Part shown: positions 4,747 to 33,089 of the stretch, one piece after another
Position numbering within the stretch: the first letter of the stretch is position 1
How the letters are laid out: each line of letters starts with the position of its first letter
Origin: an uncultured Gammaproteobacteria bacterium
GTDB taxonomy: Bacteria; Patescibacteriota; Microgenomatia; 0-14-0-10-38-17
DNA length: 64,000 bases
Direction of reading: 5' to 3'
Assembly (NCBI GenBank): GCA_964348895.1
Contig: CAYGEH010000001.1
Span: 6,676 to 70,675 of the forward strand
Program-made: the position numbers and the translations under genes
The notes under the pieces: model-generated
Told to the model about the DNA's origin: nothing
What the model saw: only the letters and a program-made list of their open reading frames with translations
The model's database searches: none

Positions 4747-5835
4747 TTATTTTTCTAAAGAAGAAAGAACATTTTGATAAACCCCTAGCGTTTCTTTGGC
4801 ACACTTTTTCCAAGAAAATTTCCTAGCCTGGAGTAGTCCTCTTGCCGACAACTTGTTGGCAAGTTCTTTGTCACCAATCACCGTTTCAATCGCCCTAAAA
4901 AGGGAATTTTTTTGATAAGGGTTAAAATAAAGCACGGCTTCTTCTCCAACTTCTGGCAAAGAACCAGTATTGGCCGAAACTACTGGCGTTCCGCAGGCCA
5001 TAGCTTCAACTAGGGGCAGACCAAACCCTTCGTAAAAAGACGGTTGACAATAAATCGAGGCAAGGTTATAAAGGATGGGCAAATCTTCATCAGGAACATA
5101 GCCCAAAAGATGAATTTCTGCTTCATTTTTAGCCATTTTTTGTAACCAAACCAAATCTTGGTTTTCGGGATGATTTCGGTCGTAGTTTTGACTAATTGCT
5201 TGTTTTCCAGCAATTACCAAGGGGAGATTAACTTGCTGACAAGCCTTAACGAGGTTGGGGATATTTTTGTTCCAGTTGACATCGCCAACATAAAAAACAA
5301 ACTTTCTTGGCAGACAGTATTTCTGCCTAATCACCTCTTTAATTTTTTCATTTTTTATTTTTTTAAAGCTTTCCCCCACCCCTAAATAAACAACAAAAAT
5401 TTTTTCTGGCTTATAGTTTACCAAGCGGGCGATATCTTTCTTAGAGTTTTGAGAGTCGGTAATAATAGCTTCGACTTTTTGTAGTTTTTTTTTCTGCCCT
5501 AACCAGTTTATTCTTCCCCTAACACCTGAAGGATAGTGACTAGGAAAAACTAAAGGAGTAAGGTCGTGAACAGTGACGATCGTTGGTCTTGTTTTTCTGG
5601 GTAGGGTGGGAAAAAAAATATCAAATTGGGGATAATGAACAAGAGAAGGTGATTGGTTGTTTGAGTGGTCGAAGGGCTCATCGATCATTTTTATTTTAAA
5701 ATCAGCATATTTCCTATCCTCTTTAATTGTTGCCAATAAGCCTTCAGTTAAGTTTTTGGTATAAAAACCTATTCCGCGAAAACGATGAGAGTTTTTAAGG
5801 GGAGAAATATCAATAGCAACACAAACGGCTGTCAT
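4747..5835 (-). CDS. Glycosyltransferase family 1 (GT4-type, GT-B fold)
   Basis: C-terminal EGFGLPLVEAMACGTPVV nucleotide-sugar binding motif; 362 aa. Confidence 0.85.
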   Translation of the reverse strand: MTAVCVAIDISPLKNSHRFRGIGFYTKNLTEGLLATIKEDRKYADFKIKMIDEPFDHSNNQSPSLVHYPQFDIFFPTLPRKTRPTIVTVHDLTPLVFPSHYPSGVRGRINWLGQKKKLQKVEAIITDSQNSKKDIARLVNYKPEKIFVVYLGVGESFKKIKNEKIKEVIRQKYCLPRKFVFYVGDVNWNKNIPNLVKACQQVNLPLVIAGKQAISQNYDRNHPENQDLVWLQKMAKNEAEIHLLGYVPDEDLPILYNLASIYCQPSFYEGFGLPLVEAMACGTPVVSANTGSLPEVGEEAVLYFNPYQKNSLFRAIETVIGDKELANKLSARGLLQARKFSWKKCAKETLGVYQNVLSSLEK

Positions 5836-5867
5836 ATTATTTTAACAAAACAAATGGAGCCAGTTTT

Positions 5868-6644
5868 TTAGTCTTTTTTGCCACGTTTTTTCTCCCAATA
5901 TTTAATAAAGGCGACAGGATAATGGAGGGCAGAAAAAAAAGCGAAAATTAGGCCGGGAAAACCATCATAAAAGCCCTTGTGTCTTAAATAGCGAAACAGA
6001 AACTCCCCCATCGCCCTTAACTCTATTAAAAAATATTGTTTAATTGTTGGCTTAATTTTGGGGTTAGCTAAATAATCTTTTGCTGTTAACTCAGTATAGC
6101 GATTAAACTTGACCAAATACTCAGCAAAATTAGGATAGGGATAATGAAGTAAGTGGCCAGAAAGCTGATCAATCTTACCAGAGGGAACCTCCATTTGTTC
6201 GTGAACTGATTGGCAGGGTAAATAAGCCCGACCCTTCTTAAAAAACCTAATCACAGAGTCTGGATACTGTCCTCCCTTAGAAAGCCAGTGATTCAAAAAA
6301 AAGTTTTTTCTTTTAATAAAAAAAGCTTCGGCCTCACTCCCCTTCTCGGCTATGGCCAAGATTTCTTTTCTTAGATCTTGGTCAACAATTTCATCAGCAT
6401 CAAGCTGAAGAACCCACTCCCCTTTGCAGGCGTCAATGGCCATTTGTTTGTTAATGTGAAAAATGGGCTTATTAGTGGTTTCAATTACCCTTGCTCCATA
6501 TTCTTTGGCGATTATTTTAGTTTTATCGACAGATTCCCCATCAACAATAACAATTTCTTCTGCCCAATCCTTAACTGCCCCAAGACAAGCAGCAAGGTTT
6601 TTTTCTTCGTTATAAACCGCCAAGGCAATTGAAATTTTTACCAT
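5868..6644 (-). CDS. Glycosyltransferase family 2, WaaE/KdtX-like
   Basis: ISIALAVYNEE...EEIVIVDGESVDKT...LQLDADEIV; paralog of 13723..14511 and of the second domain of 15590..17191. Confidence 0.8.
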   Translation of the reverse strand: MVKISIALAVYNEEKNLAACLGAVKDWAEEIVIVDGESVDKTKIIAKEYGARVIETTNKPIFHINKQMAIDACKGEWVLQLDADEIVDQDLRKEILAIAEKGSEAEAFFIKRKNFFLNHWLSKGGQYPDSVIRFFKKGRAYLPCQSVHEQMEVPSGKIDQLSGHLLHYPYPNFAEYLVKFNRYTELTAKDYLANPKIKPTIKQYFLIELRAMGEFLFRYLRHKGFYDGFPGLIFAFFSALHYPVAFIKYWEKKRGKKD

Positions 6645-6661
6645 AGCACTATTTTTGTTAT

Positions 6662-8332
6662 TTAATCATCAAAACCAATTTCAAAGGCTTCGTTTCCATC
6701 GGGGAAATAAACTGTTTTAACAATCCAATCTTTCGGGAGGTCTCCCGGTTTGCCAACAAAAAGATTTCTCCCCTCTTCTCTTGCGGAAATTTCTTTAACC
6801 GAGTCTCCCGGATCACCAAAATTAGGAAAATAAAACCTGTCAAACCAATCTACCCAAACCCAACCATAGCGTTCAGCCCTAATTTTATCCATTGCCTGAT
6901 ATTTTTCGGGTGGATATTGAGAGTAAAACAAAAAAAAGATATAGGGTTCTCCATAATGGCGAGTAAAAAAAGCTTTGTCAAAATTTTCTCTATTTTCCCA
7001 AACAAAACTAACCGCTTCTTTATAGCCATATTGCCAGTCTCTGGCTTTAGTTCTAGGATAAACAAAATGGTATTGTCTTAGATAGTAAGCAAAGTTTAGT
7101 GTTAAAAGAAGAAAAAAAACAAATAAAAAGATTTTCTTTGTTTTTAGTTTTTTTACTTCCAGCCAAAAACCCCAAAGGCCGAAGGCAATAATTATTTGCC
7201 AGGCCGGGAGAGAGCAGAAAGTTCTTAAGGCATGGGGTATAGAATTTATGGTTGTGGCGGCGGCAACAGGAGAAATTAAAATTTGGGCAAATAAGAGAAA
7301 TGCCGACAAAGACTTTTCTTTAATTAATTTTTTTCCCAACAGGTAGGTTCCCCAAAGAAGAGCGGGGGCAAAAATAATCATAAATTGTCCAAAACCAGGA
7401 ATGCTTTGCTGAGTGTGTTCGGCCCCGTCAATAAAAAGAAATTGAGGAGAAAAATGGGCTAAATAATTTTTTCCAAAAACCCAAAAATAATGAGTAGCCT
7501 TATTATGAATTAATCTTGCGGCCGGATCCGGCCAGCCCAAATCCCAAAGGCGACCCCGTGCTTCATTAATTCTCAAAACAAACCCTGGATCACCCTGAAT
7601 GCTAATCAGACTATAGCGACCCTGAACAATTGGGGTATTAAAATTTAAAATTAAAGGTAGGGCAAAAATGGCGGCGATCAAAGCCCCTCCCAGCAAAGCT
7701 TTTTTATTCTTGAGAAATAAGCTTCTGTCAAAAAGAAAAACAGCAGAAAAGAAAAGGGGTACAAAAACTCGCGAAGAATTATAGGTATAAACCGAAAGGG
7801 AAGCAAAAAGAAATGACCAAATTAAGGAGGTGGGCTTTGTTTTAGCTCGATAAAGAAAGAAAATTGACACCAAAAGGAGTAATTGGGCTAAACCAGCTTC
7901 AAAAGCAACTCTAGTAATTTGTAAGTGCCAAATGTCAATTGCCAAAATAAAAGCAGACAGTAAAGCCAAGACTTTGTTTTTAAAAAGCTGTTTAACAAAA
8001 AAATAGCTGAAGCCAACACCAATAACACCAAACAGTGCTGGCATAAAGCGAGCCCCAATCTCGCTTAATCCGAATAGCCAAATCCCAGGAATAGTGGCAT
8101 AAATAAAAACGGGCAACTTATATTCTCCAAACGATTCAAACCCCAAAAGAGGCCAAGACTTTCCCCATTCATCTTTGCCGGTTTGAAGAATAGAATGGGC
8201 GTTATAAGCAATTGCCACCTCATCCCAATTAAGAGAAGGAGGAACCTGATTTAAGCGAAAAAAGCGCAAGAAACCAGCCAAAATTAAAATTAAAACTAAA
8301 TAGAAAAAAGGAGATTTAAAAAAAGATTTCAT
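6662..8332 (-). CDS. GT-C fold membrane glycosyltransferase, ArnT/PMT-like (GT39/GT83-like)
   Basis: 556 aa, >10 TM; first extracytoplasmic loop carries the DE motif (NWDEVAIAYNAHSIL...GKDEWG), as in ArnT/PMT enzymes. Confidence 0.6.
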   Translation of the reverse strand: MKSFFKSPFFYLVLILILAGFLRFFRLNQVPPSLNWDEVAIAYNAHSILQTGKDEWGKSWPLLGFESFGEYKLPVFIYATIPGIWLFGLSEIGARFMPALFGVIGVGFSYFFVKQLFKNKVLALLSAFILAIDIWHLQITRVAFEAGLAQLLLLVSIFFLYRAKTKPTSLIWSFLFASLSVYTYNSSRVFVPLFFSAVFLFDRSLFLKNKKALLGGALIAAIFALPLILNFNTPIVQGRYSLISIQGDPGFVLRINEARGRLWDLGWPDPAARLIHNKATHYFWVFGKNYLAHFSPQFLFIDGAEHTQQSIPGFGQFMIIFAPALLWGTYLLGKKLIKEKSLSAFLLFAQILISPVAAATTINSIPHALRTFCSLPAWQIIIAFGLWGFWLEVKKLKTKKIFLFVFFLLLTLNFAYYLRQYHFVYPRTKARDWQYGYKEAVSFVWENRENFDKAFFTRHYGEPYIFFLFYSQYPPEKYQAMDKIRAERYGWVWVDWFDRFYFPNFGDPGDSVKEISAREEGRNLFVGKPGDLPKDWIVKTVYFPDGNEAFEIGFDD

Positions 8333-8402: not shown

Positions 8403-10931
8403 TCAAGACCTCTTTCTTATTAGTAAACCATAGCCAGCAATTACCACCAGCGAAAAAAGGCTAACTGTGTTGGCAATTTTTTGAATCTTACTTTCTTGCC
8501 AATAAACCCTAAGATTATGTTCGCCACCAGGCAAGTTAATGGCAATCAAGCCGGTTTTTTCTTGGGGATGGAGATTGCCAAGGTTGCTTTGCCAACTGGG
8601 AAAATAAAATTTAGCAAAAACAACTTCTTTTTCCTGATCTAAATTAATAACGGTTTGACAATAAAAATCTTGACACGGGAGGGCTAAATTAAAGTCGTAA
8701 CGATAATAATCGAGTGGAGCCCAAATGGGTAAAACTTCATTAGCGGTGGTGGTTGTTTGGCTGGCCTCAGGTGAGCCCAAAACTTTTTCTTCACTGATTT
8801 CTCTTTTTATTCTAGGGTAGGGGTAATAAAAAGCGATGGTAATTGTCAAAAAAATTAAAATAATAAAATTTACCCAGAAAAGCTTTTTAAAGCTAATTAT
8901 TTCATTAAAAAGAAAGGTGATTGGAAAAACAAGAGTAAAGTTAAGAAAACCTAAAAAACGCCAAGGAAACTGTGTTCGAGGCAAAAATGGTAGATTCTGC
9001 CATAAAAACGAGGAGCGATGATTCATTAGAAAAATGAGAAAAAAAGAAGCCAAGATAAACAAAATCAAGGGTTTTATTATCGGCGAAGAGAGTTTAATTT
9101 GTTTTTTAAAAAAGTAAATTGTGATTAAAAGCAGGGCAGATAAAAACAACAACAAATGGGGTGGGCCGACCTGAAAGGACATTGAGTCTCCCGGTCCAGG
9201 CAAAGAAACTCCGTAATCCCAAGGGGAATAAACTAACTGACGAATAGTGGGAAAGTGATCCCACCAATTAAAAGCCCTTTCTTTAGAAAGATGAGCAAGG
9301 GGCATTTCTAAAAGAGCTGGAAGCCAGAAAAATGCCGATAAACCTAGGGCAGTTAAAACTGGAAAAGAAAAAATAAAAAACTTCTTGCCAAAGCAAAAAA
9401 CAATAAAAATTAAAAAAAAGATTAAACCCCAAAGGGCAACAATGTTGTGGGCAGTTATTAATGAAGCACCCAATAAAGCAAATAGAAATAAGTTAAGAGG
9501 GGTTATTTTCTTGCTTAAAAATATTTTCTTTGTCAAGCCAAAAAGCCCTGGCAAAAGCATCAGGGCCCAAAATTCCGCCAAGGTTCCTCTAACATAAATA
9601 TTAGAAAAAGTATAAGGAGCAAAGACATAGAAAAAAGCTCCGACCAAAGAGGCAAAAACGGAAAAATAGTTCTTTAAAAATAAAAAAGTAAACCAAAAAC
9701 CTAAACCTAGTCCTAGAACAAAAAGAAGCCTAATTGAAGCAGCTAAAGAAAAGCCTAAAAGATGAAAAAATCCGCCCAAGTAATAAACAAGAGGATAAAG
9801 ATAGTTAAAAACAGGAGCCCCAAGGCCCCCAGCTAACCCCGGAGCCCAACGAGGAGGAAACTGTCCAGCCCTAATCGCCTTATCAAATTCAGCCAGTCTA
9901 ATTAAATGAAAAAAACCATCATGAGAGTCAAAGAATTGATATCTTAATAAAGGAAAAACAGCATAAAGCAACAGACCGCCAATTATCAAAATTAAGGGCA
10001 ATAGACTCCGATAAGGAGAAGCTTTAATTAAAAAATTAATTAAACTGTGTTTTATTATTCCGTGAAATTTTTTACTACTTTCTATTAAATATCGATTCAT
10101 TTTCTGTGGTTCCTTTTTTCCACTAGCACCATGATGGTGAACCATTTTTGCCTGAGGAACATAGTAAACTTTCAATCCCGCCCTGCCAACTCTTTGACAA
10201 AAATTAAGGTCTTCATAATACATAAAGAATTTTTCCTCAAAATGACCAACCAAAGCAATAACTTTTTTGGGAATCAACATTGCCGCCCCCACCACCGCCT
10301 CAACTAAGCTTGGCTGTCCTCCGCGAGGCAAATACTTGCTAAAAACACCACTTTTGTTCAACCAAAACTCTTGAAATGTCCGAGCAATGGTGGGCAGGTT
10401 ATAGCAAGAAGCCTGTGATGTTTTGCCATCTTTATTAAGAAGCTTTGGAGCGACAATGCCAACGTTTTTCTTTTCATTGGCTACTTCAATTAGCTTTGTT
10501 ATTGCTCCTGGTAAAACTCTAATGTCAGGATTTAATAAGAGAAAGTATACCCCCGTTGACTTTTTAAGACCTTGATTTACTGCTCGAGCAAATCCAGCGT
10601 TTTCTGAGTTAAAAATTGTTTTTACTTTTAGGAATTGATTTTGACTGAGCAAAGAAGCTGTTTCTTTAGTTGTTGGTCTTTCTTTCTTGGCAGTTAAGGC
10701 TTCAAGATACTCTCTGGTTCCGTCAGTGGAGTTATTATCAACCACAATTACTTCAAGATTAGCTAAAGACAAGACCTGATCAGAAACCTCTTGGTTATTA
10801 GAAACTACTCTTGGGCTTTTTATCTTCTTAGTAGTAGGAGAACCATTAGCAAGAGAACTAACAATGCTATCCAAGCACTGCTCTAGCAGTTCTTTGGTGT
10901 TGTAAGAAACGATGATGATTGAAAGTAGCAT
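8403..10931 (-). CDS. Fusion protein: N-terminal rhamnosyltransferase-like GT2 domain plus C-terminal polytopic membrane domain of the QFPPRW paralog family (putative GT-C)
   Basis: N-term IIIVSYNTKELLEQCL...VIVVDNNSTDGT...YYEDLNFCQR (GT2); from about aa 300, 12+ TM helices with HDGFFHLIRL...GQFPPRWAPG, NIYVRGTLAEFW, SPWDYG...DSMSFQVG and C-terminal FYFPSWQ plus a final TM. Confidence 0.7.
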   Translation of the reverse strand: MLLSIIIVSYNTKELLEQCLDSIVSSLANGSPTTKKIKSPRVVSNNQEVSDQVLSLANLEVIVVDNNSTDGTREYLEALTAKKERPTTKETASLLSQNQFLKVKTIFNSENAGFARAVNQGLKKSTGVYFLLLNPDIRVLPGAITKLIEVANEKKNVGIVAPKLLNKDGKTSQASCYNLPTIARTFQEFWLNKSGVFSKYLPRGGQPSLVEAVVGAAMLIPKKVIALVGHFEEKFFMYYEDLNFCQRVGRAGLKVYYVPQAKMVHHHGASGKKEPQKMNRYLIESSKKFHGIIKHSLINFLIKASPYRSLLPLILIIGGLLLYAVFPLLRYQFFDSHDGFFHLIRLAEFDKAIRAGQFPPRWAPGLAGGLGAPVFNYLYPLVYYLGGFFHLLGFSLAASIRLLFVLGLGLGFWFTFLFLKNYFSVFASLVGAFFYVFAPYTFSNIYVRGTLAEFWALMLLPGLFGLTKKIFLSKKITPLNLFLFALLGASLITAHNIVALWGLIFFLIFIVFCFGKKFFIFSFPVLTALGLSAFFWLPALLEMPLAHLSKERAFNWWDHFPTIRQLVYSPWDYGVSLPGPGDSMSFQVGPPHLLLFLSALLLITIYFFKKQIKLSSPIIKPLILFILASFFLIFLMNHRSSFLWQNLPFLPRTQFPWRFLGFLNFTLVFPITFLFNEIISFKKLFWVNFIILIFLTITIAFYYPYPRIKREISEEKVLGSPEASQTTTTANEVLPIWAPLDYYRYDFNLALPCQDFYCQTVINLDQEKEVVFAKFYFPSWQSNLGNLHPQEKTGLIAINLPGGEHNLRVYWQESKIQKIANTVSLFSLVVIAGYGLLIRKRS

Positions 10932-11036: not shown

Positions 11037-11969
11037 TTAGCTTGCCTGATTGCTTATTTTTTCGAAAACCTCTCTGTCTGATAAAACGGCTAGCCTTTTT
11101 TCTAATCGACGCTTAGTTAAAATTTGGAGTAATTTTAGCCCAGCGGTTAAAAAAACTCCGACATATTTGGGTTGGTAAATTAGACGCTTTAATAAATTAA
11201 AGCAATGATCTGTTATCATTTTTGAATCGTGAATATTTTTCCAAATAAAAAAAAGCTGATTTCTTTGGGCGACAAAATTAATTTTTTGATTAGAAAAGTT
11301 TTGTCGGATAACACTTTCCTCATGACGGTGATCAACTCTGGCTTTTGATTCCCAAATAATCTGATATCCTCTTTTCCAGGCTCGGTAACAAAGATCAGTT
11401 TCTTCAAAATAAAATGGAGCAAAAAGAAGGTCAAGCCCACCAAGTTTTTGCCAAATTGATTTTCTAAACAGAGAGTGGCCCCCAGAAACCCAAAAAGAGA
11501 AACTTGACCCAGTCGTTTTTGAAAAAACCTCTTTCGCAGAAGAAAGATCTAAAAATCCATTTTTAAAATTAATCACTCCTCGTTTCCAGTCGGCATTAGC
11601 GCCAACAGCAAAAGTGTTGGGGTTTTTGAAGTGAGGCAAAAGCGACTCAAAACAGCCGCTTTTAACGACAACGTCAGTGTTAAGCAAGAAAACTAATTCT
11701 GCTTGGGCAAGACTTACCCCTTGATTAACGCTATCAGCAAAACCCCTATTTATTTCTTTTTTTAAAATGATAAATTTTTGAAAAATCTTTTTTTTCTTTA
11801 TTTCTGCCAAAACCATCAAGCTGTTGTCAGAAGAAGCATCATCAACAACAATTACTTCTGTTTTTATTTTTGAACCAGACAAAGCTTTGGCTAAAAGAGG
11901 CAAATTTTTTCCCAACTGCTTTTCTCCATTCCAGTTAGGAATAATAATAGAAATGATTGGTGTTTTCAT
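11037..11969 (-). CDS. Glycosyltransferase family 2
   Basis: ISIIIPNWNGEKQL...VIVVDDASSDNS...DxD-type region; 310 aa, soluble. Confidence 0.8.
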   Translation of the reverse strand: MKTPIISIIIPNWNGEKQLGKNLPLLAKALSGSKIKTEVIVVDDASSDNSLMVLAEIKKKKIFQKFIILKKEINRGFADSVNQGVSLAQAELVFLLNTDVVVKSGCFESLLPHFKNPNTFAVGANADWKRGVINFKNGFLDLSSAKEVFSKTTGSSFSFWVSGGHSLFRKSIWQKLGGLDLLFAPFYFEETDLCYRAWKRGYQIIWESKARVDHRHEESVIRQNFSNQKINFVAQRNQLFFIWKNIHDSKMITDHCFNLLKRLIYQPKYVGVFLTAGLKLLQILTKRRLEKRLAVLSDREVFEKISNQAS

Positions 11970-12700
11970 TGAGTAAACTTTAAAACAATTAGCTTACGAT
12001 AAGGAAAAAAATTAATTTTAGCTAAAAAATTTCTCAAAAAAAAGGTTAAAAAAAACAGTCTGGTTAAATATTTGTTCTGACTAAAACCAAAAAGCAATAA
12101 ACCAAGATGAAGAAAACCACTGGTATTATTAACAATCTTTTTTTTAATAATTTTTTTGTTTTGTTTTTGGGCGATTTTAGTCAACTCAACCACTACTTCC
12201 TCTGTTTTGGGAAGAGAAAACTTAAGATGTTCAGTTAAAAAATTAAATTTTTTTTGATGAGTTTTTTGATAATACCAATTAAGAATCCTATCGACTAAAA
12301 AAGACTGTCTTCCACTAGGAAAGGAAATTAAAAGATATTTTTTGGTCAAAGAAACCATGTTCTTTAAGGCTAGGTTTCTATCACTGGGAGGAAGATGTTC
12401 CATCATGTCAACACTTAAAACCAGATCAAATTGATTTGTGAACCTCTTAGGAATTTTATTGGCTGAGGCAACAATTGGTTTTAAAAATGACGATTTAGAA
12501 TTAGAAAAAGCAACGTCAAAGCCAATAAAATTTTTTTTTAAATAAGGGCCGATACCCAAACTTCCAGATCCCACTTCGGCTATTTTTAACTGACTCTTTC
12601 CGGTAAGATTGTCAATTACTTTTACAATCGGTTGATACCGAAGATAAGTTGTGATGTCAAAGTTGACGGGAATTTTTTTAAAGATTTTTTTCAATTTCGT
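11966..12700 (-). CDS. Class I SAM-dependent methyltransferase (start uncertain)
   Basis: IAEVGSGSLGIGPYL (motif I) and DLVLSVDMMEHLPP (motif II). The 313-aa track ORF (to 12907) overlaps the upstream GT1 gene by about 230 nt, so the real start is probably a non-ATG codon near 12675-12700. Confidence 0.55.
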   Translation of the reverse strand, partial: TKLKKIFKKIPVNFDITTYLRYQPIVKVIDNLTGKSQLKIAEVGSGSLGIGPYLKKNFIGFDVAFSNSKSSFLKPIVASANKIPKRFTNQFDLVLSVDMMEHLPPSDRNLALKNMVSLTKKYLLISFPSGRQSFLVDRILNWYYQKTHQKKFNFLTEHLKFSLPKTEEVVVELTKIAQKQNKKIIKKKIVNNTSGFLHLGLLLFGFSQNKYLTRLFFLTFFLRNFLAKINFFPYRKLIVLKFTQ

Positions 12701-13730
12701 TGGCAAAATTAACAACAGAGAATTGTTTGGCCAAAGGAAGCAAAGAATTAAAAGAGGGTTTCTCGACAGCCACTTTCTTGGTTTTGTTAACCAATTCGTC
12801 TTTCTTGGTCCACAAACAAAGATTCTTTTGGGAGAAATCTCTAAAGATTTCTTTTTGGCCACCAGCCGAATAAACCAGGGGCCAGCAGCCAGAGGCAATT
12901 GCCTCAATGGTGGTCATACCAAAATGCTCTACTTTTTCTGGTTCTTTTTTTTCATCAATACCAAATCCCGCCGCATGCCAAAAGATTTTTGCCTTAGAAT
13001 AAGTTTTTTTTAGTTCTTCAAAAGAGGCGTTAACCTTGAATTCAATCGGATAGTTTTGGGCTTGTTTCCTAAGGCTTTTTAAAAACAAGTTCTTTTCTTC
13101 TTCAGCCAAAGAGCCACCAATTAAAACTAACTTCCAGTTCGAAAGACCATCATCAACCATCTTTTTAAAAACAGAAATTAAAATATCTTGCCTCTTAACA
13201 TTCATTGTTGTTTCAAATCGACCAACGGCAACAATTATTCTTTCTTTTTCTTGAGGAGAAAAGTCGTCAATCGCTACTGGTGGATACCAAACAGACGAGG
13301 ACACACCATATTCTTTGTCAATAATTTTTTTGGTAAAAAAAGAGTTGCAAATTATTTTATCAACAAGCCTTAGCTTCATTATATTAAACAATCCCCTGCC
13401 GTTAACATTGTGAAATGGAACCTGAAAATGAAGCCAGTTTTTTTTAGCCATCATCAACGGAATACTGCCATCAGATACCCAAAAAAGCAAGTCATACTTG
13501 CATTGATTGAAAAAAGACTTTTTTTGTAAAAGATTTTCCTCAATAAGAGCCAGGTTTTTAAGGGGCAAATTAAACCTTCTTCTGGCCTGATCGAGAAGAT
13601 CCTTATTCTTGAAAGTTACCTCAACTTGCCATTTGTTGTTAAGAAGAACCTGGCAGAGGGTTAGAATATATCTTTCTCCTCCCCCCAGAGTTTGGGCGTA
13701 TGGTGTATAAATTGCGGCTCTTTTAATCAC
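12678..13730 (-). CDS. Glycosyltransferase family 1 (GT4-type)
   Basis: C-terminal FGMTTIEAIASGCWPLV motif with E-x7-E-like region; 350 aa. Confidence 0.8.
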   Translation of the reverse strand: MIKRAAIYTPYAQTLGGGERYILTLCQVLLNNKWQVEVTFKNKDLLDQARRRFNLPLKNLALIEENLLQKKSFFNQCKYDLLFWVSDGSIPLMMAKKNWLHFQVPFHNVNGRGLFNIMKLRLVDKIICNSFFTKKIIDKEYGVSSSVWYPPVAIDDFSPQEKERIIVAVGRFETTMNVKRQDILISVFKKMVDDGLSNWKLVLIGGSLAEEEKNLFLKSLRKQAQNYPIEFKVNASFEELKKTYSKAKIFWHAAGFGIDEKKEPEKVEHFGMTTIEAIASGCWPLVYSAGGQKEIFRDFSQKNLCLWTKKDELVNKTKKVAVEKPSFNSLLPLAKQFSVVNFANEIEKNL

Positions 13731-14511
13731 TTTCTTTAGAAGAAACTTGTTTTTCCCAAACTCGAGCCTGAGTAATAAAAACAGAAAAAACTTGATAAAT
13801 AACTTGTATTATTCCTGCTGGTCCATCTAGTAAACCCTGATTTTTTACGCCTCGCCGCCAAAACTCTCCTAGCATTCTTCTAATTATTAAAAGAAAGTTT
13901 GTTTTTTGTCCAGCCTCAAAAAGAAGATTGGCCTCCTTTTCTGAATAACGAATAGTTCTTTCTAGCATTTCTTCAATGCTTTTAATTGCAAGATGAATAA
14001 AGGGGATGTCGACATTAACAATCTCCCCTTTTATTTTAGGAAAACTATGAATTTCTTTTGGCCAATCAATAAAACTTCTTTTTTTGATAAAACGAACCTG
14101 ATAATCAGGCCACCAACCACCTTTTTTTAACCAAAAACCAAAATTAATATTTTTTCTGGCAATGGCCATGGCGCCAACACTGTCTTCAATTTGATTAATT
14201 CTTTCTCTCAAAAAACTGGCCAACTCTGGTGTAATTCTTTCGTCGGCATCTAAAATAAAAACCCAATCACCAGAGCATTTCTTAATACCAAAACTTCTAG
14301 CTGGCTCAACATAACCAGTTTGGACATGAGAATAAACCCTATCGGCTATTTTTTGAGCAATTTTCTTGGTTTGGTCTTCAGACTCCATATCAACAAAAAC
14401 TATTTCGTCTGCTAAAAGGCGGGCCGACTCAAGACATTCGCCAATATCGTCCTCCTCGTTACGAGCAATAATGTTAATCGAAATTTTTGGGGCTATTTTG
14501 TTTCTTGCCAT
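13723..14511 (-). CDS. Glycosyltransferase family 2, WaaE/KdtX-like
   Basis: ISINIIARNEEDDIGECLES...ADEIVFVDMESEDQT...LDADERITPEL closely resembles the WaaE/KdtX signature; 8-nt overlap with the downstream gene. Confidence 0.8.
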   Translation of the reverse strand: MARNKIAPKISINIIARNEEDDIGECLESARLLADEIVFVDMESEDQTKKIAQKIADRVYSHVQTGYVEPARSFGIKKCSGDWVFILDADERITPELASFLRERINQIEDSVGAMAIARKNINFGFWLKKGGWWPDYQVRFIKKRSFIDWPKEIHSFPKIKGEIVNVDIPFIHLAIKSIEEMLERTIRYSEKEANLLFEAGQKTNFLLIIRRMLGEFWRRGVKNQGLLDGPAGIIQVIYQVFSVFITQARVWEKQVSSKESD

Positions 14512-14642: not shown

Positions 14643-15593
14643 CTATTGAATTAATTTCTTTCCACCAAGATTGCCAATTAAAAAGTCACAAACTGCTGTT
14701 TTTCTGGTTTGATCTTTTCCAAACATTATTCTTAGCAAATCAATTAATAAGAATATTTTTATTCTCCAGTTTCCATGCTTAAAGCCAAAAAGAAGTCGGT
14801 TTCTAGTCAAATAATAATTTTGTAATTTTGAACCAGAACCGCCAGAGGAAGCAGCGTTCTTATGATAAACAAGAGCTCGGGGATTAAATAAAATTTTAAA
14901 ACCAGCCTTGGTTGTTCGCAAAGAAAAGTCTAAATCTTCTAAATATAGGAAAAAACGTTTATCAAAAAAATCAATTTTTTTAAAAACTTCCTTTTTAGCT
15001 AAAAAAGCACAGCCAGTAGCAAAAGAAGACTCTTTTTCTTGATCATGTTGGCCCTGGTCTACTTCGTCAACACCAATGTGACGACCCAAAACATTAATCC
15101 AATCAATTGTTCCGCCGGCATACCAAATTACTCGACCTAAATCTTTTTTTTGATAACGGTCCTGATGAAACTCAAAACCAGGGGCATAATAAATTTTAGG
15201 GGCAATAACTCCCGCTTTAGGATTTTTTTCAGCTGTTTTGATCAGTTCCGTCAAGCAGTTTTGTTCTATTTCTGTGTCGTTGTTAAGAATAAAAAGATAA
15301 TCGGCGCTATTTTTAAGAGCTTGTCTAATCCCCTGATTGTTACCCTCAGCAAAACCTAAGTTTTCTTTGTTTTCTATTAAAACGAAAGAAACCTTTCTGT
15401 TTCGTTTTTGAAACCTAACCTGATCAATTCGTTGTTTTAATTTTTCAACAACCTCAGGCTGAGAAAAGTTGTCGACTAAAATAACTTCTAAGTTTATACT
15501 CTCGCCTCTTTTGGCGGCTAAAACAGAATTAAGGCATTGAACTGTTAGCTCTGGCTGATTCCAGTTAAGAATAATAACAGCCAGTTTTGTCAT
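14643..15593 (-). CDS. Glycosyltransferase family 2, rhamnosyltransferase (WbbL/RfbF)-like
   Basis: AVIILNWNQPELTVQCL...VILVDNFS...FFLYLEDLDFSLR motif; adjacent rml operon supplies dTDP-rhamnose. Confidence 0.75.
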   Translation of the reverse strand: MTKLAVIILNWNQPELTVQCLNSVLAAKRGESINLEVILVDNFSQPEVVEKLKQRIDQVRFQKRNRKVSFVLIENKENLGFAEGNNQGIRQALKNSADYLFILNNDTEIEQNCLTELIKTAEKNPKAGVIAPKIYYAPGFEFHQDRYQKKDLGRVIWYAGGTIDWINVLGRHIGVDEVDQGQHDQEKESSFATGCAFLAKKEVFKKIDFFDKRFFLYLEDLDFSLRTTKAGFKILFNPRALVYHKNAASSGGSGSKLQNYYLTRNRLLFGFKHGNWRIKIFLLIDLLRIMFGKDQTRKTAVCDFLIGNLGGKKLIQ

Positions 15594-17292: not shown

Positions 17293-18798
17293 CTATTTTT
17301 TTATTTGCTTTTTAATTATTTCTTGAACCCCTTTTGGTATCAAACTTCTGGCCAAAGACAACTCTTCTTTGATTTTACCTCTCAAAACTAAAAAAAGACA
17401 GCCCAGATAAACAAGTCCTCCAAAAAACACCCACAAAATTAAACTTCGTAGCTGATTAACTAAGTTTGTCATTGGCCACCACAAAATCAGAGCCATTAAA
17501 ATGGAGGCTAACAGTGGAGCTTTTATTGCCCCAACTAAAGAAAAAGAAATCTTGGCTTTTTTAAGGTTTCGGCTAACCAAAAAAACACTAGACAGTCCAA
17601 CTACCACTCCAGCCCAAGCAATTCCTTCAAAACCCAAGTTGACAATCAGGGGGAAACCAACGACCCAGGTTAAAATAGTGTAAATTATCATCAGGCGTAA
17701 AACCGTCCGAGACTCCCCTAAAGAAAACAAAACATTAGTAGCAGTGGTAGTAAAAACTACTGGAATTGCCCCTAATAAAAAAGGATAAAGAGCTGGTAGG
17801 GCTGGCAACCATTTGTCAGACTTGGCGGCATAAACTAATCTTAAAACTGGTTGAGCCGAAACCAGCAAGCCAAAAACAAGAGGTAAATAAAGGTAGGCCA
17901 TCAACCTAACTCCTTTTTCTAACCATATTCCGACCCGAACCTTATCGTCTTGAATTTTGGCAAAAGTAGGAAAAACTACTCGATTAACCACATTAGTAAC
18001 CTCCATTGGTTTGGCAGCAATACTTTGAGCCAAATTAACAAAACCAACAGCAGCTGGTCCATAAAAAAAGGCAATTACCGTTGGGGTTAAATTATCTTTT
18101 AAAAGAGCCAAAAGAGAATTAGCCTGATATGGTAGACCAAACTTAAGTAACTCTTTAAGAGAATTTCTGTTAATGGTCAAAGAAATTGACCAGGGAGAAA
18201 CAAAACCTAAAACAATTGCCCCAAGCAAGGTTCTTAATAACAGTGCGCCAGTTAAACTCCAAACTCCAAATCCCAAAACCGCTAACATTACCGCCACTAA
18301 ATTATAGGCAACACTTTCAGTAATTTCAGGAATTAACAGTTTTTGATAAAGGAGGTTTCTTTGTAATAGGGCGGAGGGAATTGTTTTAAAACAAGTGATT
18401 AAAAGACAGAAAGCGGTAGACCGTAACAGCCAAATTTGAGGAGCGGAAAGCTGATAAAGGCGAACCAGTGTTGGTGACAACAACCAAACCAAAATATTGA
18501 TAATCAAAACCAATAAAATTTGAACAGTAAAAACTGTTGCCGTGTCAACTCTTTTAAGAGTGGTTCTTTTTTGAATTAAAGATGCTCCCAGGCCAATATC
18601 AGACAAGAAACCAAAAAGAGTAAAAACAATAAAATTGATAATACCAAAAATACCAAACTCTATTTCGGTTAAAAGTCGTGCTAAAAAGATTATGCCCAAG
18701 GCGTCAACCGCCCTAATGGCAATTCTTTGTATTGCCAAGGTCATTGTCCCCTTAATCGCTCTATCCTTAACCTGCTCTGGCTGATCTCTTAAAGCCAT
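17293..18798 (-). CDS. Wzx-like flippase / polysaccharide biosynthesis protein (MOP superfamily)
   Basis: 501 aa, about 14 TM, N-terminal TLAIQRIAIRAVDALGIIFLARLL typical of O-unit flippases. Confidence 0.65.
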   Translation of the reverse strand: MALRDQPEQVKDRAIKGTMTLAIQRIAIRAVDALGIIFLARLLTEIEFGIFGIINFIVFTLFGFLSDIGLGASLIQKRTTLKRVDTATVFTVQILLVLIINILVWLLSPTLVRLYQLSAPQIWLLRSTAFCLLITCFKTIPSALLQRNLLYQKLLIPEITESVAYNLVAVMLAVLGFGVWSLTGALLLRTLLGAIVLGFVSPWSISLTINRNSLKELLKFGLPYQANSLLALLKDNLTPTVIAFFYGPAAVGFVNLAQSIAAKPMEVTNVVNRVVFPTFAKIQDDKVRVGIWLEKGVRLMAYLYLPLVFGLLVSAQPVLRLVYAAKSDKWLPALPALYPFLLGAIPVVFTTTATNVLFSLGESRTVLRLMIIYTILTWVVGFPLIVNLGFEGIAWAGVVVGLSSVFLVSRNLKKAKISFSLVGAIKAPLLASILMALILWWPMTNLVNQLRSLILWVFFGGLVYLGCLFLVLRGKIKEELSLARSLIPKGVQEIIKKQIKK

Positions 18799-20239: not shown

Positions 20240-21895
20240 TTAGAAAATAAAAATAATTAACAAAATAATTAACCCTAAAATTGTTAGAGCATAAGCGATT
20301 TTTTCCCAGAAAGTGGTAACAAAAGAAAGTTCATATTCACCAGAATTATTAGCCCAAAATTTAATTCGACCAGTTTCTTTTTCGCCTTTAATCGCTATTG
20401 GTTCATTGTTATCAACAAAATTTAATTGCCAACCAGGAAGATAAAAGCGGTTAACAGTAACCTGACCAGGATTGTTTAAGCGAAAAATAATTTTAAAAGG
20501 AGTATCTGCCACTAGTTCGGCAGTTTGGTTATTCGACAGGGTCAGAGGCCAATCTGGCTTTGCTTTTGGACGAACAATAGTCCCAGCAGGATAAAATTCA
20601 GCCGCAGCTTGAGCTGATTCCCAAATTTTCTCTCTCTCAAGATAATAGCTCTTGGCTTCAGCAATAATCATTTGAGGTTGAAAATATTTAAGGTTAAAAT
20701 AACCAAGAAAAAAAATAGCCAATAGGGCAAGAGGGGGGGTTAGGATTTTATTTAAACAGGGGCGATTTTTTCCACCAGCCACTACGCCACCAGAAAAGAA
20801 AGCAATAATCGGAGTTGCCAAGCCCAAGAATCGCCAAGGAAATTGAACTATTGGCAAAAAGGGCAAAGTTTGCCATAAGGGTGCAGACCAAGAAAGAGAC
20901 AGAAACAACCCCCAACAGCAAAGCAGAAATAGCATTGCGATGGTTTTCCTTTTCTTTCTTTCAAGTAAAGCAAAAAACAAACCAGCAAGGGCTAAAACAA
21001 TTTGAATTTTACCAATTCTAAAAGAAATTCCGTCGGCTAAACCCGGAGTTGAACCACCAAAACCCCAAGACCAATCCCAAAGCTGGGTTAAATAAACAAA
21101 GTGATCAACAAAGTTGGTTTTAGTTGCTTGGGTTAAGGCTCCAACTCTGCCAAGATCAATAATGGCTGGCAACCAAAACCAAGCCGCTAAAGATAAAATT
21201 AAAAAAGTTGACCCAAAAACAAGCAAGAACCTTTTTTTTAAATTAACGGCTTGGGTTAAAAAATAAATTATTAATATCGGTAAACAATAGGCTAAAATAA
21301 TTAAAAATAAATTATGGGCAAGCAATAGACTCAAGCTAGACAAAATAAAACCAATAACAATTTTTTTATTAAAACGATCCTTGGTTAAACGAATAAAGAA
21401 ATAAAGCCAAAAAGGCAAAAGATTGATCGCTAAAATTTCCGAAAGGGCCGCTCTAACAAAAATATCTAGGGCACGAAAGGGTAAGAAAATAAAGGCAACT
21501 GAGGCCACCAGACCGCCCCAAAACCCCCAAAATCGTCGTGCTAAATAAAACATTCCCCAAGAACCAATCAGATTACCCAAAAAAACAGCCAAAAGAAGAG
21601 AAAGAGCATAATCTCCAATTATTTTGAAAATAAACCAAGATAAGAAAATAAAAAGGGGAGCATAATACTTAAATAAAGGATAACCGAAACCATAGGCCAT
21701 ATCGGGAGCTAATCGAGGCGGAAATTGACCAAGAGAAATTGTTTTGTCAAATTGTTGAAGGCGAACAAGCCAGGTGGCGTCGTGAGCTGGAAAGAAAACA
21801 TCAGGGCCAATTAAAACCGGTCGTAAAATTAACCAGTTTAAAAACAGAAAAAAACCAAAAATCAACCAAACCTTAATTTTTCTTAAGTACCTCAT
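20240..21895 (-). CDS. Polytopic membrane protein of the QFPPRW paralog family (putative GT-C)
   Basis: AHDATWLVRLQQFDK...GQFPPRLAPDMAYGFGYPLFKYY, DIFVRAALSEI, WDWSWGFGG...DGISFRIG, C-terminal FYLPGWQ plus a final TM. Confidence 0.55.
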   Translation of the reverse strand: MRYLRKIKVWLIFGFFLFLNWLILRPVLIGPDVFFPAHDATWLVRLQQFDKTISLGQFPPRLAPDMAYGFGYPLFKYYAPLFIFLSWFIFKIIGDYALSLLLAVFLGNLIGSWGMFYLARRFWGFWGGLVASVAFIFLPFRALDIFVRAALSEILAINLLPFWLYFFIRLTKDRFNKKIVIGFILSSLSLLLAHNLFLIILAYCLPILIIYFLTQAVNLKKRFLLVFGSTFLILSLAAWFWLPAIIDLGRVGALTQATKTNFVDHFVYLTQLWDWSWGFGGSTPGLADGISFRIGKIQIVLALAGLFFALLERKKRKTIAMLFLLCCWGLFLSLSWSAPLWQTLPFLPIVQFPWRFLGLATPIIAFFSGGVVAGGKNRPCLNKILTPPLALLAIFFLGYFNLKYFQPQMIIAEAKSYYLEREKIWESAQAAAEFYPAGTIVRPKAKPDWPLTLSNNQTAELVADTPFKIIFRLNNPGQVTVNRFYLPGWQLNFVDNNEPIAIKGEKETGRIKFWANNSGEYELSFVTTFWEKIAYALTILGLIILLIIFIF

Positions 21896-24674: not shown

Positions 24675-25454
24675 TTATTTGTATTTTCCTTTCCAATCAT
24701 TCTTTTTAACATTGACAATCTGTTCTAGCATTTGACGAGACTCTTTAATAAAACTTTTCTTCTTACCAACAGAAACGTCTTCGTCTTGCCAGGCCACTTC
24801 TATTTCTTTAACCTTAGAGCCTGATTTCTGAGCCAAATAGAGCAGCTCAACATCAAAGGCCGTTACTCGCCAACCAGAAGCTTGTTGCCAGTTTTCCAAA
24901 ACCGATAACTTAGGAAAAAGCCTTTGGGCAACCTTGGTTTTAAAAGCCTTGAAACCACACTGGGTATCTTTAATGTTAGGCAAAAGAAGTATTCTCCTTA
25001 AGGAAAGAAAAATTAAAGCAGCCAACTGACGATAAAAAGGAGCCCCCTTTCTTTTTATGCCCCTAGAGCCAATTACCACCTCAAAGCCCTGATCAAAATA
25101 GGGTAATAATTTAGCTACTTCTTTAATTGGAGTTGACTGATCCATATCGGTAAAAAGAACAATCTTTCCCCGAGCTTTTTTAATACCCTGCCAAACAGCA
25201 TAGGGCTTACCACCATGTTGATTCTCCAAAAGAACAAAGCCGGAATGTTTTTGAACAAACTCTTTGGCTACCTCTCTGCTATTGTCGCTTGAGCCATCAT
25301 CAGAAACAATAACCTCCCAAGAGTATGTTTGTTTTTTTAGATAGTCAACTACCTGATTTAATACTCCTTGGCGAAGATTAGCTTCTTCGTTATAACAGGG
25401 AATAACTACCGATAAAAACATTTCTTTATTGCTCTTTGCCGAAGAAGTGGTCAT
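24675..25454 (-). CDS. Polyprenyl-phosphate sugar synthase (DPM1/GtrB/ArnC-like GT2)
   Basis: LSVVIPCYNEEANL...EVIVSDDGSSDNSREV...GKPYAVWQGIKKARGKIVLFTDMDQSTP matches the Dpm1-type signature. Confidence 0.7.
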   Translation of the reverse strand: MTTSSAKSNKEMFLSVVIPCYNEEANLRQGVLNQVVDYLKKQTYSWEVIVSDDGSSDNSREVAKEFVQKHSGFVLLENQHGGKPYAVWQGIKKARGKIVLFTDMDQSTPIKEVAKLLPYFDQGFEVVIGSRGIKRKGAPFYRQLAALIFLSLRRILLLPNIKDTQCGFKAFKTKVAQRLFPKLSVLENWQQASGWRVTAFDVELLYLAQKSGSKVKEIEVAWQDEDVSVGKKKSFIKESRQMLEQIVNVKKNDWKGKYK

Positions 25455-30144: not shown

Positions 30145-31332
30145 TTATTTTTTTGTTTTAACCCTTAAAAAGGAAGGGGCAAAAGCCTTCCAAATAACAA
30201 CGTTGTACATTAACCAATTATAGGGAATAACCAAAAAACCAATTGCCAACACAAGCCAAAGGTGTCGCCAGGCGTTTCCTGTCAGACTGGTTCCTAGCCA
30301 AACGACTAGAGTTTGTAAAATTAAGGCTCCCGCCGAGGCTAGATTAAAGGCAAGAAACTTTTTTAGAACCTCAAAAAAGGTTTTAAACTGATAAGTTTTA
30401 AAAGTCCAAAAATTATTAAATAAGAAATTAGAAATAATGGCCATTTCTGTGGCCAAAAGAGTTGCTAGGGCAATTGAAAGGTTAAGTTGATAGAAAAGCT
30501 CCAACCCTGAAGCGTTAACTAAATATCCAATAAAACCAACTAAAGAAAACTTTAAAAATCGTTGGCTGACCGGATCGTGCCAGCGAAGCAGAACAACAGT
30601 TCGAAAAATGTCTTTGGCGGTATTAGAAGAAATTTTTGATTCTCCTTTAATTCGTAACCCAAATTGTAAGGGAATTTCACTGGTTTTTGCTTTTAAACTA
30701 ACCACCATGCGATAAAGTAAGTCTAATTTATAGCCAAACTTATAAGAATAAAGCTTGTCTAGGTTGATTTTGTCAACGAAACCCCTAACTCGAGAAGCCC
30801 TCAGGCCGGTGGTAGGATCAGTAATGCTAAAAAAATTCTTCGTAGGAAAGAAAAGAATAAATCGCGCTACTAGTCCGCCGACTTCAGAAAAAAACACTCT
30901 CTTTATCCCCCACCCTTTAGGGTTAGAACCGCCTTTAATTTTCCTAGAACCTAAAACATAATCATAGCCTTGGTCAATTTTTTTTAACAAAACAGGAATG
31001 TCTTTAGGTGGGTGTTGAAAATCAGCATCAAACTCAATTATTACTTCAGCAGACAATTTTTCTATCGCATAACGAAAACCAACCACATATGCCCAACCAA
31101 TACCCATTTTTTCTTTATTCAAATAAAGATGAAGATTGGGATATTGGGCTTGCTTTTTTTGAACAATTTTATAAGTACCATCAGGAGAAGTGTCGTCAAC
31201 AATTAAAAGATAAATTTGCCAATCAGCAACTTTAGGAAAAGTTTTGCTGAAAAGATGATCAATCATTTCTCCAATTACCTCAGCCTCGTTATAAGTGGGA
31301 ATGATTACCACGGCTGTTTTCTTTTTTGTCAT
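30145..31332 (-). CDS. Polyprenyl-phosphate sugar synthase (DPM1-like GT2) fused to a C-terminal GtrA-like membrane domain
   Basis: AVVIIPTYNEAEVI...LLIVDDTSPDGT...EFDADFQHPP (Dpm1 signature), then 4 TM with FLKFSLVGFIGYLVN...NFLFNNFWTF (GtrA-like). Confidence 0.75.
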   Translation of the reverse strand: MTKKKTAVVIIPTYNEAEVIGEMIDHLFSKTFPKVADWQIYLLIVDDTSPDGTYKIVQKKQAQYPNLHLYLNKEKMGIGWAYVVGFRYAIEKLSAEVIIEFDADFQHPPKDIPVLLKKIDQGYDYVLGSRKIKGGSNPKGWGIKRVFFSEVGGLVARFILFFPTKNFFSITDPTTGLRASRVRGFVDKINLDKLYSYKFGYKLDLLYRMVVSLKAKTSEIPLQFGLRIKGESKISSNTAKDIFRTVVLLRWHDPVSQRFLKFSLVGFIGYLVNASGLELFYQLNLSIALATLLATEMAIISNFLFNNFWTFKTYQFKTFFEVLKKFLAFNLASAGALILQTLVVWLGTSLTGNAWRHLWLVLAIGFLVIPYNWLMYNVVIWKAFAPSFLRVKTKK

Positions 31333-33074: not shown

Positions 33075-33089
33075 TTTAAATTAAAAAAA

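Follow-up and report, generated by a model that had tools for sequence, protein, structure and literature searches.

What a bacterial cell could do with a glycosyltransferase domain and a polytopic membrane domain joined in one polypeptide is the question raised by an open reading frame (ORF) at 8403..10931 on the minus strand of the window, the 64,000-nt stretch of contig CAYGEH010000001.1 (assembly GCA_964348895.1) analysed here. The ORF starts with ATG and encodes 842 aa plus a stop codon, and its host is a Microgenomates-type bacterium of the Candidate Phyla Radiation (CPR). The answer that we favour, with slightly more confidence than doubt, is that it encodes a bifunctional two-sided glycosyltransferase of one cell-envelope glycan pathway, whose N-terminal glycosyltransferase family 2 (GT2) domain would extend a lipid-linked glycan on the inside and whose C-terminal GT-C domain would glycosylate on the outside. 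Its two enzyme types are both known, and the fusion pairs them in a new way without being a new kind of machine.

A sequence-only reading had described the ORF as a single polypeptide, and the reading frame bears this out: the 842 codons of 8403-10931 contain no internal stops, the GT2/GT-C junction (nt 9960-10120) is continuous in-frame coding sequence, and 20 further two-domain proteins were found. The motifs quoted in that reading were all located in the ORF, SYNTKELLEQCL at residues 9-20, VVDNNSTDGT at 63-72, YYEDLNFCQR at 238-247 and GQFPPRW at 355-362. The gene lies within a long co-directional run, 105 nt after an upstream GT2 gene and 70 nt before a downstream PMT-like gene; its N-terminus aligns residue for residue with those of other fusion proteins, and an identical protein (P0001) is recorded from an NCBI assembly, where its contig is 691 kb long. 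The same picture would result if a frameshift introduced in sequencing or assembly had joined two neighbouring genes, and a split arrangement with an 11-nt overlap is indeed known in another metagenome (locus L003). The GT2 of that split locus is, however, degenerate and no clean copy, whereas the 20 further proteins, from independent samples and assemblies and at 32-66% identity, carry both domains in one chain, with a conserved linker and, in 18 of the 20, a near-complete GT-C domain. A frameshift or assembly artefact is very unlikely as the source of the fusion, and the independent orthologs with the same architecture exclude it in practice.

The N-terminal half (residues 1-300; 10032..10931, minus strand) is a GT-A/GT2 catalytic domain. 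Residues 4-280 match PF00535 in Pfam (E=3.6e-21, 76.2 bits versus a cutoff of 23.3), and PF13641 is also above threshold (30.7 bits versus 27). With the GT-A core motifs as defined by Taujale et al. (PMC7185993), the domain contains DNNSTD (65-70), NPD as the DxD equivalent (134-136), YED as the xED motif (239-241) and HHHG as the C-His motif (265-268), and 12 fusion orthologs, with identities as low as 34%, keep all of these motif residues unchanged, N134-P-D136, Y239-E240-D241 and H265/H267 among them. It is an intact inverting GT-A/GT2 enzyme of the WbbL/COG1216 'xED' class and not of the Dpm1/GtrB polyprenyl-phosphate type. On this choice between the Dpm1/GtrB and WbbL types, four lines of evidence agree on a WbbL-like enzyme, namely NCBIfam models, profile alignment, window paralogs and PDB neighbours. 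The best NCBIfam model was the rhamnosyltransferase model TIGR01556 (54.4 bits, E=1e-14), followed by EpsD, MftF and HpsN, while the ArnC, PpgS and dolichyl-phosphate hexose transferase models of NCBIfam gave no match to the fused GT2 at E<=0.01; 'rhamnosyltransferase-like' is a class label at superfamily level and not a specificity. The GT2-domain profile (A3) aligns through the acceptor/xED half only with ppGalNAc-Ts and GlfT2. Among the seven other GT2 genes of the window, the nearest is the WbbL-like 14643-15593, which aligns over the full length (residues 3-296; BLASTP E=8e-29), whereas the best of the Dpm1-like window genes has E=2e-4, with an alignment limited to the first ~150 residues. 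The best PDB neighbours of the full-length model in Foldseek were the glycan-acceptor GT-A enzymes WrtF, AvpGT, TarP and K4CP, with the top 50 matches all coming from the GT-A half.

This typing bears directly on a rival explanation, in which the fused GT2 makes a polyprenyl-phosphate sugar that is flipped and then used by the fused GT-C domain, as a covalent GtrB+GtrC or CsbB+YfhO. Such a chain would guarantee its own donor supply. The GT-C family has secondary profile similarity to YfhO and PMT_2, families whose partners are GT2 synthases (PMC10821137), and the sole match of a single-sequence phmmer search against the PDB was the Pyrococcus dolichyl-phosphate mannose synthase (DPMS). That match was nevertheless weak and confined to the nucleotide-binding half, as were the alignments of DPMS, ArnC and GtrB with the GT2-domain profile (profile positions ~1-112). 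The fused GT2 matches the rhamnosyltransferase, EpsD and HpsN models instead of the synthase models, and it carries the xED motif FMYYEDLN and lacks the Dpm1/GtrB-type motif xxGF[KR]; the cluster has separate genes for two genuine Dpm1-type synthases, and the closest GT2 relatives are fused to phosphoglycosyl transferases (PGTs), which fits a step after lipid-PP-sugar formation. We regard the self-supplied donor as improbable. The likeness that the sequence-only reading had drawn to GtrB/GtrC, CsbB/YfhO and GacI/GacL does not carry over, as the partner GT2s of those systems are of the Dpm1/GtrB type, the fused GT2 is not, and such synthases are encoded separately here. Its proposal that the fusion couples the two sides of the membrane survives as the tethering of a cytoplasmic glycan-extension step to an extracytoplasmic GT-C step, which is the most that can be inferred; because the fused GT2 is not Dpm1/GtrB-type, the fusion is not a pair of donor synthase and GT-C enzyme.

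The GT2 domain ends in a K-rich C-terminal helix that forms the fusion linker (residues 276-307; 10011..10106, minus strand; SSKKFHGIIKHSLINFLIKASPY) and continues into the first transmembrane helix (TM1), with a single helix predicted by AlphaFold2 (AF2) over residues 276-330. Standalone GT2 relatives share the tail SSK[IK]YHG...LI..IIWSGQKW at their C-terminus. A low-complexity variable insert rich in K, S, Q and P occupies residues 29-57 (nt 10761-10847), between beta1/alpha1 and the DNNSTD strand; it is 0 to ~100 residues long among orthologs and has a predicted local distance difference test score (pLDDT) of <50.

The remainder of the chain (residues ~308-842) consists of 12 TM helices and an external beta-sandwich. 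As the sequence-only reading had proposed, it is a 12-TM domain of a 'QFPPRW' paralog family, which is supported by homology to paralogs and by the AF2 and hydropathy topology. The domain (residues ~313-839) shares 34% identity over 521 columns (E=2e-62) with the product of 27037-28779 and 31% identity (E=1e-42) with that of 20240-21895. The latter standalone GT-C paralog (20240..21895, minus strand; 551 aa) is a PF10131 member (E=1.5e-12, 47.2 bits versus a cutoff of 26.4), and the former (27037..28779, minus strand; 580 aa) matches PF10131 at E=2.4e-4. Of the 35 aligned family members, 31 match PF10131, with secondary matches to YfhO, PMT_2, STT3, DUF6541 and the AftD GT-C domain, and precomputed PF10131 matches exist for the fusion orthologs P0006, P0007, P0009, P0012, P0013 and P0017. 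By full-domain homology, the C-terminal domain can be assigned to the PF10131 'PTPS_related' family. PF10131 belongs to Pfam clan CL0111 (GT-C) and is listed as 'function unknown' (PMC7801869).

The GT-C profile found no sequence match among solved structures in the PDB, with only noise returned (TMEM106B, E=0.3). Because the full-length Foldseek list was driven by the GT-A half, the membrane domain was remodelled alone, with AlphaFold on residues 300-842 and a 60-sequence alignment. The resulting model is of high confidence (pLDDT 92.6, predicted template modelling score 0.92), and its top 28 PDB matches in Foldseek were all GT-C enzymes, namely AftD, STT3, AglB, PglB, ArnT, DPY19 and PMT, with AftD as the best (E=1.5e-4, TMq 0.48). 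As modelled, the C-terminal domain is a GT-C fold, so that both the family, in the GT-C clan, and the fold place it among glycosylation enzymes; a membership in a non-glycosylation family, which would have spoken against the sequence-only reading, was not what we found. Relatives of this domain also occur in other architectures: P0124 (1093 aa) and P0126 (1116 aa) contain two complete PF10131-type GT-C domains in tandem (GT-C-GT-C), and the giant P0127 (3329 aa) also has two. The PF10131-type GT-C family enters several kinds of fusion.

The topology was derived by combining the AF2 helices with hydropathy. TM1 (residues 308-330; 9942..10010, minus strand) is supported by both and runs from inside to outside. 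It leads into the first external loop (EL1; residues 331-395; 9747..9941, minus strand), which contains Asp338 (FDSHDG), R345, E348 and GQFPPRW at 355-362 (nt 9846-9869). The GT-C membrane core follows (TM2-TM11; residues 396-702; 8826..9746, minus strand; AF2 pLDDT above 90), and then an extracytoplasmic beta-sandwich of ~110 residues that precedes the last TM (residues 703-814; 8490..8825, minus strand) and has a conserved FYFP(S/G)W motif. AF2 predicts its strands at residues 757-811, and the C-terminal region aligns with the paralogs to the end. The chain closes with the TM12 anchor and a cytoplasmic tail, IRKRS (residues 815-842; 8406..8489, minus strand). In this 12-TM model, the 10-residue TM flanks hold 24 K+R on the inner side versus 9 on the outer side, which fits the positive-inside rule and places the GT2 side in the cytoplasm. 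The GT2 domain has no signal peptide, and since the K-rich helix moreover runs directly into TM1, the domain is predicted to be cytoplasmic, with the Asp338/QFPPRW loop outside. The WbbL/COG1216 typing and the topology model thus agree with the soluble cytoplasmic rhamnosyltransferase-like GT2 of ~300 aa that had been proposed.

The most conserved residues of the GT-C family, including D338, R345, E348 and R361/W362, are all on the outer face, where GT-C active sites lie. D338 is conserved in at least 90% of 60 family members; R361 is invariant in both family alignments (A2 and A4), as is R345 in A2, with at least 90% conservation of R345 in A4. Further conserved core residues of the outer face are R448/G449/E453, H495, E542, W571 and QFPWR (654-658). 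D338 is a candidate catalytic Asp, judging from conservation and position in EL1. In every fusion ortholog, each domain retains the residues that are invariant in its family. Two strings in the external loop TM7-TM8, NWWDHF and SPWDYG (residues 555-574; nt 9210-9269), recall the WWDYG motif of oligosaccharyltransferases (OSTs). They were rejected as such a motif: the WWD is not conserved in the family, which keeps only HF...SxWGYG, and the position of the loop is unlike that in OSTs, so that the likeness is probably a coincidence.

The sequence-only reading had also entertained an export channel, as in synthase-type enzymes such as BcsA, hyaluronan synthase (HAS) and chitin synthase, with the GT2 polymerising a glycan and the membrane domain letting it out. 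A GT2 and multiple TMs in one chain give a superficial resemblance, QFPPRW and QFPWRF resemble the synthase motif QxxRW, and HAS and chitin synthase do appear in the full-length Foldseek list. These matches, however, cover the GT-A half only, at a root-mean-square deviation of ~19-23 A, and the membrane domain alone matches GT-C enzymes only. The GT2 is N-terminal to all TMs and not inserted between helices, the membrane domain stands alone in 143 relatives, and both QxxRW-like strings sit in extracytoplasmic loops of the GT-C fold and were discarded as synthase motifs. The GT-C fold, the domain order and the external QFPPRW contradict the channel, which is scarcely credible.

A stronger competitor concerns the reaction of the GT-C half, which could be a polymerase, ligase or OST that moves a flipped lipid-linked oligosaccharide en bloc to a chain, wall polymer or protein, like WpsH/WpsJ, PglB or AglB. 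STT3, AglB and PglB rank high among the structural matches, no Wzy was identified in the window, and a fusion to the GT2 that finishes the lipid-linked unit would be a logical Rosetta-stone link; lactococci are documented to use GT-C polymerases and ligases on C55-P-linked repeat units that Wzx has flipped (PMC10821137), and the WWD/WDYG-like strings of residues 555-574 might be read in the same sense. The top match is, however, AftD, and ArnT, PMT and DPY19 also match, all of them monosaccharide transferases; the family consensus in the TM7-TM8 loop is not WWDYG. Moreover, a 31-kb stretch with three PF10131 paralogs, two Dpm1-type synthases and at least six other GT-C-like genes is more like a series of mycobacterial-style single-sugar additions. 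En-bloc transfer is unlikely on this evidence, while keeping a real share of the probability.

In the two-sided glycosyltransferase that we favour, the GT2 half would act like WbbL at the inner leaflet, where it would use a nucleotide sugar to add a sugar to an oligosaccharide linked to polyprenyl-(pyro)phosphate. Because rmlABCD adjoins the cluster, dTDP-L-rhamnose is a good candidate, and a plausible one, for the donor. The fusion of this GT2 subtype to PGTs, Wzx and PMT_2 elsewhere suggests that it acts on a lipid-linked intermediate and tends to be tethered to membrane glycan enzymes. The lipid-linked glycan would then be flipped by one of the Wzx-type flippases of the cluster, after which the GT-C half may transfer a sugar from a polyprenyl-phosphate sugar to the exported glycan or the final acceptor, like AftD, ArnT, YfhO and PMT. 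The Dpm1-type synthases 24675-25454 and 30145-31332 would make this donor, and their presence in the cluster gives contextual support to the proposed use of a polyprenyl-phosphate-linked donor by the GT-C half. In mycobacterial arabinogalactan assembly, a WbbL-like step and other glycosyltransferases act in the cytoplasm, followed by a flippase and then a series of GT-C enzymes outside. The lactococcal polysaccharide pellicle (PSP) scheme likewise has cytoplasmic glycosyltransferases, a flippase and then GT-C enzymes outside (PMC10821137). The fusion probably arose by the joining of adjacent genes, and it would anchor an otherwise peripheral GT2 at the membrane beside a partner of the same pathway and fix their ratio at 1:1, without creating a closed pair of donor synthase and transferase.

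Several observations weigh against this reading. The GT2 does not reach membership of TIGR01556 (54.4 bits versus a curated cutoff of 200.55), and because that score lies so far below the cutoff, rhamnose specificity is only a guess. The fused C-terminal domain alone has no Pfam or NCBIfam match even at E<=10 (the PF10131 gathering threshold is 26.4 bits), and because this direct scan was empty the family assignment runs through paralogs and orthologs. No initiating PGT was present among the window ORFs scanned. At locus L005, a 41%-identical standalone relative lies among PMT_2 genes with no partner GT2 directly beside it, and because of the split locus L003, described below, the GT-C half can evidently work without a catalytically active fused partner, which speaks against obligatory coupling. 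To these is added that we infer the donor, the acceptor and the sugar of both halves.

A bolder version would make the chain a self-contained trans-bilayer unit, in which the lipid-linked product of the GT2 is handed to its own PF10131 domain, perhaps translocated with the help of that domain, and used outside as donor or acceptor. We consider this a long shot. If true, it would be the first covalent, kinetic coupling of cytoplasmic and extracytoplasmic glycan steps in one polypeptide and would assign a function to the uncharacterised PF10131 GT-C family. The fusion would be a conceptual surprise only if its halves were mechanistically coupled across the membrane; current models are not overturned, since glycosyltransferases often have several domains and both halves fall into known superfamilies.

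The fusion is conserved, in a narrow clade. A word-indexed search returned 13 complete or near-complete two-domain chains at 48-66% identity, three truncated ones with both domains and one more distant fusion at 32% identity, the named carriers being Microgenomates, Shapirobacteria or 'Patescibacteria' metagenomes. An exhaustive search of 50%-identity representatives added four full-length fusion clusters and one fragment. In a local hidden Markov model scan of the 269 retrieved proteins, 21 contained both domains, all in the order GT2 then GT-C, with ~8-18 residues between the domain matches in nearly all of them; 143 contained the GT-C domain without this GT2 (nearly all standalone) and 105 the GT2 only, so that the GT2 fusion is present in 21 of the 164 GT-C-containing relatives retrieved. 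Among the GTDB species representatives, which were scanned with GT2-only peptide patterns that returned mostly GT2 relatives, one full-length fusion was recovered, at locus L006 of a Patescibacteria metagenome-assembled genome. That relatives keep the fusion is apparent from the 21 two-domain proteins and from synteny at the loci L001, L002 and L006. A block of GT2 (~260 aa), GT4 (~350 aa) and GT2 (~300 aa) genes lies upstream of the fusion in the window and at all three loci, with four extra genes between block and fusion at L002, and on the downstream side the window, L002 and L006 share a PMT-type GT-C and a ~258-aa GT2.

The split locus L003 (ENA ERZ778604) could be taken for the ancestral state. 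Its GT2 gene (29-898) overlaps the next gene (888-1760) by 11 nt. The GT2 (P0149, 289 aa) is 56% identical to the N-terminal half of the fusion and recurs at locus L004, and the downstream product is 48% identical to fusion residues 313-574, with a full-length form in P0121 (566 aa). P0149 has G in place of D136 and K in place of E240, lacks the HHHG motif and may be a pseudo-enzyme in decay, whereas the GT-C encoded downstream, P0121, appears intact. From these sequences, the GT2 half at L003 seems to have decayed or split off next to a GT-C that stayed intact; the idea of an ancestral unfused pair was set aside, as a GT2 that has lost its catalytic residues is uninformative on direction. In a crude neighbour-joining tree of the GT-C domains, the window group is a clean clade of 14 fusions and one fragment, and five distant fusions fall among standalone proteins in other parts of the tree. 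The domains were either fused more than once or separated repeatedly, and the tree is too rough to tell which. A single origin was not retained because of the second, interleaved group, although the tree is too weak to count events.

The same GT2 subtype (FMYFEDLDYCRR ... SSKIYHG tail) is fused to other membrane proteins as well. It is joined to a PMT_2 GT-C in P0034 (760 aa), to unassigned polytopic membrane domains in P0028 (697 aa) and P0038 (626 aa), and to a Wzx-type flippase in P0070 (1117 aa). In P0042 and similar proteins of ~650 aa, from Bacteroidota, KSB1, Marinimicrobia and others, it is joined to PGTs consisting of CoA_binding_3 (PF13727) and Bac_transf (PF02397).

Set against known systems, the GT2 half shares with the WbbL-type/COG1216 enzymes WbbL and GlfT2 the GT-A fold and the DNxSxD, NxD, xED (FMYYED) and C-His motifs. 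With WbbL, the dTDP-Rha:GlcNAc-PP-polyprenol rhamnosyltransferase, it also shares the predicted cytoplasmic location, and rmlABCD is adjacent here. Classical WbbL is a standalone peripheral protein. Unlike WbbL, the fused GT2 has the low-complexity insert (29-57), is joined to a 12-TM GT-C and scores 54 bits on TIGR01556 against the cutoff of 200.55. The C-terminal half shares with PF10131 members the whole 530-aa domain, the EL1 motif HD...R...GQFPPRW, QFPWRF, the C-terminal beta-sandwich and the terminal TM, but unlike most of these relatives the window protein is below the Pfam model threshold and carries an N-terminal GT2. With AftD and the GT-C(A) enzymes (STT3/PglB/AglB, ArnT, PMT, DPY19, YfhO) it has in common the GT-C fold, an N-in orientation, a first external loop with a conserved Asp and a soluble domain outside the membrane, at only 10-16% sequence identity. 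To our knowledge, no GT-C enzyme of the AftD, STT3, ArnT, PMT, DPY19 or YfhO type has a fused cytoplasmic GT-A domain.

The logic of an inner GT2, a flippase and an outer GT-C is the same in GtrA/B/C, CsbB/GtcA/YfhO, GacI/J/K/L and WpsA/B/G/J (PMC10821137). The GT2 of the Gtr, CsbB, Gac and Wps systems is a Dpm1-type polyprenyl-phosphate sugar synthase, which the fused GT2 is not, and the window cluster holds all parts of the Gtr/CsbB-YfhO type as separate genes. In bifunctional PGTs, extra catalytic domains (glycosyltransferases, acetyltransferases) are fused to the PGT core (PMC11626204). These share with the fusion a catalytic glycosyltransferase on a membrane glycan-assembly enzyme, and the nearest non-GT-C relatives of the GT2 are of this kind (GT2 + PF13727 + PF02397). 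Both active sites of bifunctional PGTs are cytoplasmic, whereas those of the window fusion are predicted to lie on opposite sides of the membrane.

In the literature, we found no functional study of PF10131/PTPS_related/COG5617 and no account of a covalent fusion between a cytoplasmic GT-A and a GT-C enzyme, including in work on Microgenomates envelope glycosylation. Public databases already list fusion sequences, under the names 'GT2 family glycosyltransferase' or 'hypothetical protein'. The GT-C family PF10131 is large, and the envelopes of CPR/Patescibacteria, whose genomes carry long GT-C gene arrays, are essentially uncharted. As a Rosetta-stone link, the fusion places PF10131 in a lipid-linked, probably rhamnose-containing, Wzx-associated glycan pathway, and a single-chain construct opens both faces of such a pathway to joint study. 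The varied partners of the GT2 subtype suggest a general habit of tethering, which could make the order of steps easier to predict for uncultured organisms.

The first ~35 kb of the window constitute a glycan-assembly region. At least nine GT-C-like membrane proteins are encoded there, comprising three PF10131, four PMT/PMT_2-type, one MptA/B-like and two AZOBR_p60025-like proteins; those in the ~31 kb of window 1-31332 are at 6662-8332, 8403-10931, 18799-20238, 20240-21895, 21873-23432, 23469-24602, 25521-27044, 27037-28779 and 28848-30047(+). GT2 and GT4 genes are interspersed with them, as are two Wzx-like flippases and two Dpm1-type synthases, and by analogy so dense an array of GT-C genes looks like a mycobacterial-style assembly line for extracytoplasmic glycan, here in a CPR genome. 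One flippase, of the Wzx/MOP type (17293..18798, minus strand; 501 aa), matches PF13440 (E=5.7e-56) and the MOP flippase model (E=1.3e-42), and the second Wzx-like gene is at 1959-3182. The standalone WbbL-like GT2 (14643..15593, minus strand; 316 aa), the closest window paralog of the fused GT2, matches TIGR01556 at E=2.5e-14. Of the putative synthases, 24675..25454 (minus strand; 259 aa) is a Dpm1/ArnC-type GT2 and candidate polyprenyl-phosphate sugar synthase with a TQCGFK motif and NCBIfam matches to ArnC, PgfS, dolichyl-phosphate hexose transferase and PpgS. The other, 30145..31332 (minus strand; 395 aa), is a Dpm1-type GT2 with a GtrA/DPMS TM domain (PF00535 + PF04138; NCBIfam PpgS, PgfS and ArnC), a synthase and flippase-like module in one chain as in Pyrococcus DPMS.

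The dTDP-L-rhamnose synthesis genes rmlD, rmlC, rmlB and rmlA (32178..35444, minus strand) adjoin the cluster; RmlD was identified by a Pfam match, rmlC and rmlB are above curated cutoffs, and rmlA has E=2.1e-69. By Pfam, the conserved upstream block (11037..14511, minus strand) comprises GT2 13723-14511, GT4 12678-13730 and GT2 11037-11969, and the downstream genes (4747..8332, minus strand) comprise the PMT/PMT_2-type GT-C 6662-8332, GT2 5868-6644 and GT4 4747-5835, the last being found in the window only in comparison with L002 and L006. Because the rest of the window encodes housekeeping functions (SecA, Lon, aminoacyl-tRNA synthetases, a release factor and elongation factor P), the locus is considered chromosomal.

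A few further ORFs of the region are of note. A 533-aa ORF at 15590-17191 is a tandem double GT2 (PF00535 x2), the second copy being weakly like SunS-type peptide S-glycosyltransferases (E=7e-8). The TTG-start ORF at 11966-12907 (313 aa) overlaps the upstream GT4 (12678-13730) by 230 nt and has sub-threshold methyltransferase matches; its true start probably lies further downstream. Just past the sugar-nucleotide genes are a 431-aa protein with two Lamin Tail Domain repeats (40883-42178) and a 592-aa protein without significant family match (36839-38617), and both could be surface proteins and candidate targets of glycosylation.

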